Sequence record: PX104380.1
DNA: 64,000 bases
Direction: 5' to 3' (one strand)
Source: a phage
Positions 27,231 through 31,569 of this stretch are shown piece after piece. Numbering within the stretch: position 1 is the first letter of the stretch; the number at the start of each line of letters is the position of its first letter. The notes under the pieces were generated by a model. The model ran no database searches and was not told the origin of the DNA. It saw only the letters and a list, made by a program, of their open reading frames with translations. The position numbers were made by a program, and so were the translations under genes.

Positions 27231-27617
27231 TTATTCGAGGGAAAGAAGATACTTACTCTGGTAAAACATTCCAGTAATATCATCTATCGTGCTTTGAATG
27301 GCTGGAGGCATTTCTTTATAAATGCTGTTAGATTGGTCTAGTATGCGATCAATCATTTTAATTGTGTCGGTAGGAAGTTTACTGGCATCTGGAATTGAAG
27401 GCGTGTATTTTCTACCAGAATACCCCAAATATTGCTCACCAAATTTATCAATCAAATCTGGCAATTCGGAGAAAATAAAATCGTATGCTTTGTGTCTAGC
27501 ATAACTTTTAGTTTCAAAATGCGCAGAATGAAAATAAGCTTGTGCAGCCATTAATAAACCTAAGTATTCATCTGCCTTTGAAGGTTTTCCACTTTGTGAA
27601 AAGTCGCTGAATTTCAT
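27231..27617 (-). CDS. hypothetical protein adjacent to rI (128 aa)
   Basis: Minus-strand ORF overlapping rI stop by 4 nt. Confidence 0.55.
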
Positions 27618-27907
27618 TCAGTCTCCAATTTAATGTTCATAATTCTAGCGTATGATTGTGCCATCTCCGCGCCTCGTTCTATACATTCGAAATCAGAAGA
27701 GCACGGGTCATTTTTATAGGTCGTTCTCATAAAACTATAGAACTGTTCAGATGATTCTACGCTTTTATTTTCAAAAAGCATATAAACATGTCTAATACCA
27801 GATTCCATAAATTTATCAAAATGAGGATCGACATTCGCTTCAATTGGTGGAGATAAAGCAAATGACAATCCTAGCATGGCAAATAGTGCCGTTGCTTTTA
27901 AGGCCAT
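27614..27907 (-). CDS. rI: lysis-inhibition protein RI (antiholin), 97 aa
   Basis: MALKATALFAMLGLSFALSPPIEANVDPHFDKFMESG... signal-anchor then periplasmic domain, recognised as T4 RI. Confidence 0.9.
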   Translation of the reverse strand: MALKATALFAMLGLSFALSPPIEANVDPHFDKFMESGIRHVYMLFENKSVESSEQFYSFMRTTYKNDPCSSDFECIERGAEMAQSYARIMNIKLETE

Positions 27908-28757: not shown

Positions 28758-28946
28758 TTAGTCCTTAGTTAAATTTTCTAAATATGTTTCTAAATCATTT
28801 TCAGCTTTATCGATAGATTTTACTAATTCGTAATATGTTTCGGCATCTCCATATTCAGAAGATATTTCAAAAGACAAATCCTTTTCTAAACTAATAATTT
28901 CACCAACTAAAAATAATATTTCGTTCTTTTGTTCGCGAGTAATCAT
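28758..28946 (-). CDS. small helical protein (62 aa), small paralog family
   Basis: TREQKNEILFLVGEI...YLENL. Confidence 0.45.
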   Translation of the reverse strand: MITREQKNEILFLVGEIISLEKDLSFEISSEYGDAETYYELVKSIDKAENDLETYLENLTKD

Positions 28947-29128
28947 AAGGAATTTATATAATCAATGAGTTCTTGTTCTTTATTATCAAATTCTTTGGAA
29001 AGTTCTTCATATTCATTTGCGCTAAAAGGACCGCATTCATTACAAACTTTTTCCAATTCACTATTTTTATCCATAATTTCGTGGATAAGAGAAAAGAGTT
29101 TGTCTTTTTGTTCTTTGCTTAGGCTCAT
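28943..29128 (-). CDS. small helical protein (61 aa), small paralog family
   Basis: SKEQKDKLFSLIHEI...LIDYINSL. Confidence 0.45.
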   Translation of the reverse strand: MSLSKEQKDKLFSLIHEIMDKNSELEKVCNECGPFSANEYEELSKEFDNKEQELIDYINSL

Positions 29129-29294
29129 ATATTAATTTCCAGAAGTTTTAAAATAATTCGCTTTTGCTTAAATATTTCCACAGTTAAATGATCAGTATCT
29201 TTTTGACCAATTCCAATGGCAAAACCTTTATTAACAGCGAGTTCAATTAAATTATCAAGTTCACGTAACACTTCATATTGTAACTCAGAACTAT

Positions 29295-29501
29295 TCATTT
29301 CGGTTTACCTTCTTTAACGAAATCTGGATAAGGATAAAATCCCGAATAAAATCCTTCACCTTTATGATTGATGCATCCTTTATTAGAACAATAGCACCAA
29401 TAATCGAAATCACAAGCCATTTCATCGTTACATAAAGCAAAAACAACCGGCCACTTACACTTTTCACAGTGGGCATTTTTAAGAATACTAGTTTGGCTCA
29501 T
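29295..29501 (-). CDS. small cysteine-rich protein (about 68 aa; start uncertain)
   Basis: Eight Cys in CEKCKW...CNDEMACDFDYWCYCSNKGC. Confidence 0.4.
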   Translation of the reverse strand: MSQTSILKNAHCEKCKWPVVFALCNDEMACDFDYWCYCSNKGCINHKGEGFYSGFYPYPDFVKEGKPK

Positions 29502-29710
29502 AACCATGTAACCTTTAAGCAATATTCTTCTACATGTTGTTTACGACCTTTCTTATCAATAAAGGTATATTCAACGAATGTTCCAATGTAGTCTTTATCT
29601 ACATCATGTGGACTATTAATTGGGCATTTAGTACGGCAAATGCGTTCCCATTGACGAATAATTACTGCTTTGTTTTTAGGATCAAACGGATGTGGGTAAT
29701 GTACTTTCAT
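29498..29710 (-). CDS. hypothetical small protein (70 aa)
   Basis: Minus-strand ORF. Confidence 0.45.
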   Translation of the reverse strand: MKVHYPHPFDPKNKAVIIRQWERICRTKCPINSPHDVDKDYIGTFVEYTFIDKKGRKQHVEEYCLKVTWL

Positions 29711-30161
29711 AATCCACCACTATTAAATCAATATCAGGAGTAAACATGTCGATTAATTTAGAAACCTTATCCCAATCGCCGCCAGCAATACCACAACCTA
29801 TACGTGGAATGTAAATTACTGGTTTAAACAAAAGGGTTTCTGCCTGTAGATTTAATTCTATCATGCAGTTTACTAAAGCACCATAATCAAGATTAGGACC
29901 TGGTTCGTATTGCGTATACAAGTTATAACATATGCCAAACCCATTAGGTTTATGTTTAAAAACAATAGACATATCGCCTAATTTATCACGAGAACCGTAC
30001 TCAGTAGTGGTTTTATCTATTTCTAAAATTTTGGGATAGGCTCTTGCTAATTGACCAGCTACACCACTGCCCATTGTATGAAAACAGTTACACCCGTGCG
30101 CAATAATATTACCTTCAAGAAAGAGGGCGACAATATCGCCCTTGATATATTTTACAATCAT
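29682..30161 (-). CDS. macro-domain (ADP-ribose binding/processing) protein, 159 aa
   Basis: IVALFLEGNIIAHGCNCFHTMGSGVAGQLARAYP resembles the macro-domain glycine-rich ADP-ribose binding region. Confidence 0.55.
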   Translation of the reverse strand: MIVKYIKGDIVALFLEGNIIAHGCNCFHTMGSGVAGQLARAYPKILEIDKTTTEYGSRDKLGDMSIVFKHKPNGFGICYNLYTQYEPGPNLDYGALVNCMIELNLQAETLLFKPVIYIPRIGCGIAGGDWDKVSKLIDMFTPDIDLIVVDYESTLPTSV

Positions 30162-30505
30162 CTAGTACTCAATCCTCGATTATAAGAATCTACTAAACGG
30201 TCAACCATTGAATGACAAGCGGCTTTATCTTTTTCCTCCGCAACTGAACATTCTAGGGTATTCCACTTTTTAGCATATCGTTTTAATAATGTATCGTTTT
30301 TGTATCTGCTTGATTTATCTCTTTCTCCGTCTTTATATGCATATATTAATTTCTGCGCAAATTCAGCTTGGCATGCTTTATTTTTCCCGCAATAATCTGC
30401 CGCAGTGCGGTTCACATACTCCCTAATTTCAGTATATGATGTATCTGCTGACGCATAAGCAGAAAATGAAATTAATCCTATACATAAAACCAAAATTTTA
30501 GTCAT
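30158..30505 (-). CDS. secreted cysteine-containing protein (115 aa, signal peptide)
   Basis: N-terminal MTKILVLCIGLISFSAYASA signal sequence; four Cys. Confidence 0.5.
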   Translation of the reverse strand: MTKILVLCIGLISFSAYASADTSYTEIREYVNRTAADYCGKNKACQAEFAQKLIYAYKDGERDKSSRYKNDTLLKRYAKKWNTLECSVAEEKDKAACHSMVDRLVDSYNRGLSTR

Positions 30506-31043
30506 TTACTATTTCCAAAAGTTTATTATTTTTAAGGTAATTAGCCTTTTCTAGGACTTCAGAAGCATATTTAGAACCTGCTTTAACATTCCATCCCGAA
30601 TTATAAGAGGATATTGCTTTTCTTATATCGCCCTTATGTATATTTAACCAATAAGAAAGTTCAATGTACGCCCAGGAAGCTGAATTGGATCGTTTATTCA
30701 ACATTCTTTTTATTTCAGCATCGGTCATATTATAACCAAGTTCCTTAACTCTCGCTCGCATAGTAGGCAAATAATTTTGGAACATTCCGTAAGCATGATG
30801 TTTTGGTTTAGATTTTAAATTAACTCCGCCAGAGCTTTCTTGCCATAAAATAGCAGCCATTATATGACCTAATCCGCTCTTGTGGATATTTTTGTGTGTT
30901 TTATATTTTCCATCCTTAGAAAATTGTTCCCCGAATTGATACGCGTAACGCATGTTATCGAGTTGGACATTACTGAAAGTATGCTCGGAGCTATGTGCCA
31001 TCATTGAAATGGCCAATAGACCAGCGAGTAGTGCTTTTCTCAT
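30498..31043 (-). CDS. secreted lytic-transglycosylase-like (SLT domain) protein, 181 aa
   Basis: Signal peptide MRKALLAGLLAISMMAHS; ILWQESSGG ... YGMFQ resembles SLT catalytic region. Confidence 0.5.
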   Translation of the reverse strand: MRKALLAGLLAISMMAHSSEHTFSNVQLDNMRYAYQFGEQFSKDGKYKTHKNIHKSGLGHIMAAILWQESSGGVNLKSKPKHHAYGMFQNYLPTMRARVKELGYNMTDAEIKRMLNKRSNSASWAYIELSYWLNIHKGDIRKAISSYNSGWNVKAGSKYASEVLEKANYLKNNKLLEIVND

Positions 31044-31050
31044 GTTTACC

Positions 31051-31512
31051 TCATTGAGTTTTAATTACTGCTTTAGAAGCCTTTCCTGGTAAACGACGAC
31101 TGTTGATAATTGCCATCCTACATTGAAGTGACGGGTCTTTGAACTTCTCATTAGGTTTACAAACTGTAAATCCAAGCCAAAGATTTCCATCTGTAATTTC
31201 TAAACGTCCAGGACGATATTCAACTCCATCAATAAAATCCTCATCAATGTCAGGACGCGGAGGCATACTCAGGAATTCATTAACTTCTAAAACATGGTCT
31301 TTTATTTTATGGAATAATTCAAAAACATATGTCTCATCAATCTCCCGTTGAATTGCACGATCAAGAAGATGTTGAGAATATTTTAGATGAAACGATGAGA
31401 CCCCTGCTGCTTTTGATGCCTCACGAATCTCATTGTTAATTTGACGAAACTCCGACTCAAAGTGACGACGAAGCTTATTTCGACGGATAAAAACTTCTGT
31501 ATTGATAGTCAT
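31051..31512 (-). CDS. regB: sequence-specific endoribonuclease RegB (153 aa)
   Basis: Length and position; early promoter directly upstream. Confidence 0.65.
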   Translation of the reverse strand: MTINTEVFIRRNKLRRHFESEFRQINNEIREASKAAGVSSFHLKYSQHLLDRAIQREIDETYVFELFHKIKDHVLEVNEFLSMPPRPDIDEDFIDGVEYRPGRLEITDGNLWLGFTVCKPNEKFKDPSLQCRMAIINSRRLPGKASKAVIKTQ

Positions 31513-31539: not shown

Positions 31540-31569
31540 ATTATACCACAGTCAAGAGGAAAAGTAAAC
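31540..31569 (-). promoter_or_regulatory. T4 early-type promoter upstream of regB
   Basis: Minus-strand GTTTACTTTTCCTCTTGACTGTGGTATAAT. Confidence 0.6.

Follow-up and report, generated by a model that had tools for sequence, protein, structure and literature searches.

The closest described counterparts of the genes treated here, the adjacent vs.1 and vs of a T4-like phage (Tequatrovirus), are peptidoglycan-cleaving enzymes and small exported proteins of other origins. Both genes lie in a 64,000-nt stretch of phage DNA (sequence record PX104380.1), referred to as the window. The family-1 lytic transglycosylases of Escherichia coli (Slt70, MltE/EmtA, MltC, MltD, and MltF; GH23, Pfam PF01464) reach the periplasm through Sec, as is predicted for Vs.1, and have three motifs and the register of the catalytic glutamate in common with it. 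Vs.1 differs from them in consisting of the catalytic domain and one N-terminal helix, without a superhelical, LysM, or ABC-like module or a lipid anchor, in its sequence (13–20% identity), and in its origin from a virulent phage, which expresses it early in infection. Closest in architecture are the transglycosylases of secretion systems (EtgA of the type III secretion system, and the VirB1, IpgF, and P19 types), which like Vs.1 are small, Sec-exported, and made of an SLT domain alone. These enzymes are presumed to open the sacculus locally without lysis, as we presume for Vs.1. In contrast to them, Vs.1 is encoded in a phage early operon (regB-vs.1-vs-tk.4) and has neither a secretion cluster nor a known docking partner. 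Enzymes of the EtgA type also use an additional aspartate, and the alignment of Vs.1 homologs contains no invariant one.

Phages themselves provide two further groups for comparison. Virion-borne transglycosylases (the N-terminal domain of T7 gp16, phiKZ gp144, phi6 P5, and PRD1 P7) lack a signal peptide; they are packaged and attack the wall from outside when the DNA enters. Vs.1, in contrast, has a signal peptide, is made early inside the cell, and is predicted to be exported; entry of T4 uses the gp5 lysozyme. Exported endolysins, i.e., the signal-arrest-release (SAR) endolysins of P1 and phage 21 and the Sec-dependent Lys44 of fOg44, resemble Vs.1 as muralytic enzymes delivered by Sec and not by a holin. 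However, they are late, essential for lysis, of a T4-lysozyme-like fold, and inactive until the membrane is depolarized, whereas Vs.1 is early and non-essential, and T4 has e. Neither the late expression nor the requirement in lysis that defines an endolysin was found for Vs.1, which has early RNA, no late promoter, a gene that tolerates insertions, and a separate e. As for Vs, the open reading frame (ORF) in the window shows no noteworthy sequence difference from the T4 protein (VS_BPT4, tau factor), and the clash is between its annotation as a cytoplasmic modifier of valyl-tRNA synthetase (ValRS) and its prediction as an envelope protein. T4 Spackle (sp) and RI are, like Vs, small early proteins with N-terminal export signals, and the N-terminus of Vs aligns with the signal peptide of Spackle, but the mature parts are dissimilar and there is no common transposon-mutant phenotype.

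Both genes, as well as the SLT similarity of Vs.1, are already known, and the enzyme family is an ordinary one; the localization of Vs is the one interesting paradox. That T4 vs.1 resembles SLT proteins was published in 2003 and 2006, in the latter year by Nolan et al., who cite earlier PSI-BLAST results, and homologs of vs.1 are already named 'transglycosylase SLT domain-containing protein' in several databases. A preliminary description of the window that put forward an SLT-like enzyme had therefore been anticipated in print. We consider it probable that vs.1 and vs encode a co-transcribed pair of exported proteins, Vs.1 being a periplasmic transglycosylase and Vs an envelope protein.

Identity of the two genes

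The 2-kb stretch spanning both ORFs was 100% identical at the nucleotide level to Escherichia phage vB_EcoM_G4507 (Tequatrovirus) and 95–99% identical to about 500 T4-like genomes. The 181-aa protein has 100% amino acid identity to T4 ORF 61.4 (gene vs.1), and the 115-aa protein is 99.1% identical to the product of T4 gene vs ('valyl-tRNA synthetase modifier', UniRef name VS_BPT4). The latter ORF, in which the preliminary description had seen no recognizable domain, was assigned to PHROG 1256 (E=1.4e-39), and all its homologs carry Pfam PF26829 ValRS_modifier. The features of the pair are as follows.

30498..31043, minus strand: vs.1 precursor, a predicted exported stand-alone SLT/GH23 lytic transglycosylase (181 aa, ATG start)
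30158..30505, minus strand: vs precursor, a predicted small four-helix, four-cysteine exported protein (115 aa, ATG start; 99.1% identical to T4 vs)
30990..31043, minus strand: predicted vs.1 signal peptide, residues 1-18, MRKALLAGLLAISMMAHS, cleavage between AHS and SE (heuristic analysis of n-, h-, and c-regions)
30452..30505, minus strand: predicted vs signal peptide, residues 1-18, MTKILVLCIGLISFSAYA, cleavage between AYA and SA or between ASA and DT (same heuristic)
30582..30863, minus strand: core of the Vs.1 SLT domain (residues 61-154), containing WQE69SS, YGMFQN (85-90), and SYNSG (146-150), from Pfam and invariant columns
30837..30839, minus strand: Glu69 codon; the residue is predicted to act as the sole catalytic acid/base (TTC on the plus strand, hence GAA; invariant; aligned with MltE and Slt70)
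30498..30505, minus strand: 8-nt overlap, ATGACTAA, shared by the end of vs.1 and the beginning of vs, read directly; annotated likewise in T4, T2, and G4507

Vs.1 as a probable family-1 lytic transglycosylase

Vs.1 matched the Pfam SLT profile PF01464 over residues 61–154 with 25.1 bits (E=1.4e-5), above the gathering score of 21.3. Conservation was assessed in an alignment of 29 homologs with identities down to 40%, while motifs were counted among 77 retrieved homologs. The same profile was matched by 26 of the 29 aligned sequences, with a best E-value of 1.3e-7. Invariant columns of the alignment comprise E69, G86, F88, Q89, N90, Y147, N148, and G150. The pair E69-S70 occurs in every sequence (29/29 aligned and 77/77 retrieved), and the motifs G86-M-F88-Q89-N90 and S146-Y147-N148-S-G150 are both present in 76/77. 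Judged from the alignment, E69, G-x-F-Q-N, and S-Y-N-x-G represent the set of three motifs by which family-1 lytic transglycosylases are recognized; the two stretches on which the SLT-like call had been based, ILWQESSGG and YGMFQ, correspond to residues 65–73 and 85–89. Profile-to-sequence comparison with hhalign paired E69 with E64 of E. coli MltE and with E505 of the Slt70 precursor (E478 of the mature protein), and we take E64 and E478 to be the catalytic residues of these enzymes. The SLT-like catalytic region that the preliminary description gave for the 181-aa protein was thus borne out by the profile match and by the register of E69, the conserved predicted catalytic glutamate, in the alignments.

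The AlphaFold model of Vs.1 has a mean predicted local distance difference test (pLDDT) score of 89 and a predicted template modeling score (pTM) of 0.83, with low values (pLDDT about 55) for residues 1–20. When it was searched with Foldseek, all top matches were GH23 proteins, in keeping with the lysozyme-like, α-helical fold of that family. These were mostly transglycosylases, which speaks against a goose-lysozyme-type hydrolytic muramidase or another GH23 glycosidase. Such an activity would accord with the sole weak sequence match in the PDB, a goose-type lysozyme aligned at the C-terminal motif; apart from this borderline hit, PDB searches with single proteins and family profiles gave nothing useful for Vs.1 or Vs. 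We find a hydrolase improbable, given that the E-S, G-x-x-Q, and A/S-Y-N-x-G motifs are of the family-1 transglycosylase type and that E69 is not followed by an invariant aspartate that could act as the second catalytic residue. Across all columns of the 29-sequence alignment, no aspartate is invariant, and besides E69 only one acidic position, E128, is. This is consistent with transglycosylation rather than hydrolysis, without proving the chemistry. On the basis of the profile, the motifs, and the model, Vs.1 is very likely an SLT/GH23 lytic transglycosylase that is exported early. Its predicted mature form has about 163 aa, 18.8 kDa, a pI of about 9.6, and no cysteine.

The gene vs.1 was present in about 2000 phage records from several genera, including T-even relatives, Felixounavirus, and Kuttervirus. 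Searches of NCBIfam and PADLOC returned no matches. The 90%-identity protein cluster of Vs.1 also lists 113-aa 'valyl-tRNA ligase modifier' proteins (e.g., P0099), apparently an oddity of the clustering, since these members are Vs variants.

Predicted export signals of both proteins

The N-termini of Vs.1 (MRKALLAGLLAISMMAHS followed by SEH) and Vs (MTKILVLCIGLISFSAYA followed by SAD) each comprise a basic n-region, a hydrophobic core of 13–15 residues, and a small-x-small cleavage motif. Of the window's 105 non-overlapping ORFs with 50 aa or more, the signal-peptide filter selected three, namely vs.1, vs, and rI. The third of these serves as an internal positive control, as we take RI to be an experimentally established periplasmic protein of T4.

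27614-27907, minus strand: rI, third ORF passing the signal-peptide filter

Among homologs of vs.1, 75 of 77 passed the filter; the remaining two have truncated sequences or misplaced starts. The strict filter was passed by 8/13 Vs homologs, yet every full-length one visibly has a similar N-terminus. The signal peptides are less conserved than the mature parts (0.48 versus 0.68 for Vs.1; 0.52 versus 0.70 for Vs), with hydrophobicity retained. In Felixounavirus, Kuttervirus, and Tulanevirus, distant vs.1 homologs (about 30% identity) have retained the motifs as well as the signal peptide. Both precursors thus appear to carry signal peptides of the Sec type, cleavable by signal peptidase I, and the two reading frames of the preliminary description lie exactly at the positions stated there, on the minus strand, with signal-peptide-like N-termini.

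Vs: envelope protein or cytoplasmic tau factor

The predicted mature Vs comprises about 95–97 aa (11.1 kDa). Its AlphaFold model (pLDDT 84) contains helices at residues 22–39, 43–63, 70–86, and 91–112 and is confident for residues 22–112, i.e., a four-helix protein. Cysteines C39, C45, C86, and C97 are invariant, and all full-length homologs keep the four cysteines and the signal peptide. In the predicted model, the cysteine pairs flank the H1-H2 and H3-H4 turns. In a 113-aa variant of Vs, the A-x-A site (ALA followed by NT) survives a 2-aa indel in the c-region. In a distant homolog (P0096; locus L011, 4001-4327), the signal-peptidase-I site is replaced by a lipoprotein signal, MKKLFVLLIVFALSGC, with the lipobox LSGC, while the regB-vs.1-vs order is the same. 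These sequence features make it most likely that Vs is an envelope protein.

The established alternative is that Vs is the cytoplasmic tau factor that binds host ValRS, with an N-terminus that is unused or inefficient for export or is removed otherwise, and with cysteines that bind a metal such as zinc. The annotation and the classical literature, as cited elsewhere, favor this identity (Muller & Marchin 1975, 1977). The predicted model makes a Cys4 site geometrically conceivable, because both cysteine pairs sit at turns at the same end of the bundle; the spacings CX5C and CX10C are, however, atypical for zinc motifs. A cytoplasmic protein also sits poorly with a signal peptide that is kept in all full-length homologs despite sequence drift, with an A-x-A site that survives the c-region indel, with the adoption of a lipoprotein signal by one homolog, and with the location of vs within a run of genes for predicted exported proteins. 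The tau factor, which we take to be of about 10 kDa, is close in size to the predicted mature Vs of about 11 kDa, but a processed 11-kDa form would imply passage by signal peptidase and hence the periplasmic side. We therefore regard a purely cytoplasmic Vs as doubtful, albeit the most serious of the alternatives. The predicted export of Vs argues against cytoplasmic residence and is hard to reconcile with the published ValRS biochemistry, without disproving it. A valyl-tRNA synthetase modifier and a signal peptide are nowhere mentioned together in the searchable literature, in which only the 2006 comparative-genomics note was found to tie vs.1 or vs to the periplasm, a signal peptide, or a transglycosylase. 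N-terminally His-tagged full-length Vs has been reported as insoluble in the E. coli cytoplasm.

Homology gave few clues to the function of Vs. A hidden Markov model search of 1.84 billion representative proteins retrieved only 8 relatives, and no bacterial homolog that hinted at function. The fold search was uninformative, with no structural likeness to known lysozyme or transglycosylase inhibitors. We also considered Vs as a Spackle-like paralog, an idea that was rejected because hhalign aligned nothing but the two signal peptides. Inside vs, at about 30413-30424 (minus strand), a Shine-Dalgarno-like AGGGAG-TAT-GTG that also contains a GGAG motif of the RegB type precedes the in-frame GTG codon 31. 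An internal start at V31, which would give a product of about 10 kDa, was rejected as a general feature since this residue is not conserved and is replaced by T or A among the homologs.

Between vs and tk.4, Jiaodavirus-like phages encode a further protein with a signal peptide, the third in the row (L010, 3363-3755; L011, 4324-4743; L012, 778-1185). It has about 130–139 aa, a conserved mature N-terminus of the form W-E/D-K-L/V-P-G/D-Y, and 2–4 cysteines, so that these loci encode three consecutive proteins with predicted export.

Gene order and expression

The pair belongs to a tightly packed group of genes on the minus strand.

31051..31512, minus strand: regB, which opens the compact early transcription unit that also holds vs.1 and vs (Pfam REGB_T4, E=8e-69)
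29682..30161, minus strand: tk.4, macro-domain gene (Pfam Macro), overlapping the vs stop by 4 nt (ATGA)
31540..31568, minus strand: candidate early promoter of the sigma-70 type ahead of regB, TTTACT-17-TG-TATAAT, its -10 being extended (consensus scan, 10/12 + TG)

The order regB-vs.1-vs is kept in loci L007, L010, and L011, and the adjacency of vs.1 and vs is constant in Tequatrovirus, Jiaodavirus-like, and other contigs; throughout Tevenvirinae, vs directly follows vs.1. As the ORFs overlap by 8 nt, the vs.1 stop sits over the vs start, an arrangement that suggests translational coupling of the two genes.

In time-course omics of T4 (PMC9697503), RNA of vs and vs.1 was classified as 'early' and protein as 'middle', and both proteins are therefore made. 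No MotA-box middle promoters and no TATAAATA late promoters were found ahead of vs.1 and vs. The sigma-70 scan of the region gave no more matches in total than did shuffled sequences, and the promoter upstream of regB stands as a consensus match only. The two genes are prereplicative, and the early expression proposed in the preliminary description agrees with the omics classes and with the lack of MotA-box or late promoters ahead of them.

Fitness of vs and vs.1 mutants

Transposon sequencing data for T4 were taken from a bioRxiv preprint (10.1101/2025.11.20.689424). On E. coli K-12 in lysogeny broth (LB), insertions were tolerated at 30/32 TA sites of vs and 46/52 of vs.1, and both genes are non-essential (10.1101/2025.11.20.689424). 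Mean insertion counts after liquid LB competition were 26.6 for vs and 22.6 for vs.1, against 178.6 for regB, 289.6 for tk.4, and 652 for vs.3 (10.1101/2025.11.20.689424), i.e., 7–30 times below the neighbors. In M9-glucose, vs was the most strongly depleted gene (log2 fold change −2.19, q=0), and the defect was confirmed by a clean deletion; vs.1 changed in the same direction (−0.87, p=0.0055, q=0.155), and the neighbors were unchanged (10.1101/2025.11.20.689424). On the wild strain CFE299, vs.1 was among 11 significant genes (−1.20, q=0.015), while vs (−1.04) was not significant (10.1101/2025.11.20.689424). The defect of the vs deletion is specific to minimal medium and was read by the authors as an effect on translation or nutrients (10.1101/2025.11.20.689424), a point in favor of the cytoplasmic tau factor.

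The genes rI, rIII, and sp were unchanged in the comparisons in which vs or vs.1 was depleted (10.1101/2025.11.20.689424). This bears on the suggestion of the preliminary description that the enzyme, placed next to rI, acts in lysis inhibition or superinfection control. An action of Vs.1 with rI in lysis timing, lysis inhibition, or superinfection exclusion would suit a predicted early wall-degrading enzyme of the periplasm, a compartment in which RI and Spackle are likewise early T4 proteins. However, the pair is separated from rI by eight genes (about 2.25 kb), the transposon behavior of vs and vs.1 is not shared with rI or sp, and t, e, and the spanins already explain how T4 lyses its host. 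Homologs of Vs.1 also occur in other phage genera. We found no evidence supporting such a role and judge it very improbable, lower than any other alternative considered here. The distinction drawn earlier between this enzyme and the e lysozyme does hold, as e is a separate gene of the window, at a distance of about 3.2 kb.

Proposed role and points against it

We propose the following course of events. The genes regB, vs.1, and vs would be co-transcribed from the early promoter, with vs.1 and vs translationally coupled. Early in infection, the host Sec machinery would export both precursors, and signal peptidase I would remove their signal peptides, as the sequences suggest. Mature Vs.1 would then be a soluble periplasmic lytic transglycosylase of family 1 (GH23, Slt70/MltE-like). 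By analogy with its family, Glu69 would protonate the β-1,4 bond between N-acetylmuramic acid and N-acetylglucosamine, and the C6 hydroxyl of the muramyl residue would close the 1,6-anhydro ring. Vs.1 would thus nick glycan strands of the sacculus from the prereplicative period on and loosen the host wall. Mature Vs would be a four-helix envelope protein whose two cysteine pairs likely form disulfides in the periplasm. Rather than a lysis enzyme, Vs.1 would be an agent of non-essential peptidoglycan loosening or remodeling that matters more where the wall is tougher (minimal medium, wild hosts). Such loosening or remodeling seems the most likely role of Vs.1, although we put it forward with caution.

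Several points weigh against this account. The signal-peptide filter was a crude heuristic based on n-, h-, and c-regions and the -3/-1 residues, and since it was used instead of a dedicated, trained predictor, the cleavage sites of Vs.1 and Vs are ones that we infer. The hhalign E-values for the pairing with MltE and Slt70 are weak (0.16 and 0.31, single sequences), so that the register of E69 rests on motif agreement and fold. Because GH23 also takes in hydrolytic goose-type lysozymes and a chitinase, the chemistry of Vs.1, transglycosylase versus hydrolase, is not proven. No enzymatic or localization experiment on Vs.1 or Vs was found in the searchable literature. The classical biochemistry, as cited elsewhere, has the vs product bind cytoplasmic ValRS (Muller & Marchin 1975, 1977). 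The parallel depletion of vs and vs.1 could reflect a shared role, but it fits equally well with polarity of vs.1 insertions on vs. Finally, vs was found in only about 800 phage records against about 2000 for vs.1, and Vs is hence not an obligatory partner of Vs.1.

This last point is relevant to a more specific relationship, in which Vs would be a periplasmic partner of Vs.1 (an inhibitor, activator, or targeting factor) and the two would form one functional module. The 8-nt overlap with its suggested coupling, the constant adjacency of the genes, the predicted export of both products, and the depletion of both kinds of insertion mutants in the same direction and to similar levels would all fit with it. 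On the other hand, more than 1200 phage records contain vs.1 without a detectable vs, including Felixounavirus, Kuttervirus, and Tulanevirus, Vs is structurally unlike known lysozyme or transglycosylase inhibitors or T4 Spackle, and polarity may explain the common phenotype. A dedicated partnership is in our opinion unlikely.

Returning to an exported Vs.1 and an envelope-located Vs, a broader reading can be offered tentatively, with a limited chance of being right. The product of vs would belong to the envelope, residing in the periplasm in T4 and held by a lipid anchor in a relative. With Vs.1, and in some relatives a third exported protein, it would make up a periplasmic module that acts early to condition the host wall. 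The poorer fitness of vs mutants on wild hosts and in minimal medium would be due to this module and not to modification of ValRS. In that case, the ValRS modification described classically would go back to Vs that had escaped export, to binding that took place once the cells were broken, or to a misassigned gene.

The role of an early exported wall-cutting enzyme, if shown, would fill a gap for the best-studied virulent phage and for many therapeutic phages. Vs, a protein with an export-type sequence, has carried the label of a ValRS modifier for 50 years, and a recent transposon screen has made vs the top T4 gene required in minimal medium. Establishing the site at which Vs acts would either explain this phenotype or correct a textbook annotation.

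Neighboring genes

The neighbors of vs.1 are regB, vs, tk.4, and tk, with no secretion-system genes among them. The macro-domain gene tk.4 corresponds to T4 Tk.4/AdfM, which according to a 2025 preprint is an anti-DarT2 factor that protects T4 from the DarTG2 defense system. A perfect 8-bp GC-rich hairpin (AGGGCGA...TCGCCCT) lies at 30124-30142 (both strands), within the 5' end of tk.4 and just past the vs stop; it was flagged as terminator-like, but its T-run is a poor one. Between tk and tk.4, five small ORFs (28758-29710, minus strand) are found both here and in G4507, whereas T4 has only three (tk.1-tk.3), pointing to a variable mini-region. In a divergent T4-like metagenomic contig (L011), an Acb2/Tad1-hairpin ORF, of the anti-CBASS/anti-Thoeris sponge family, is located at 2400-2681 between a vs.6 homolog and regB.

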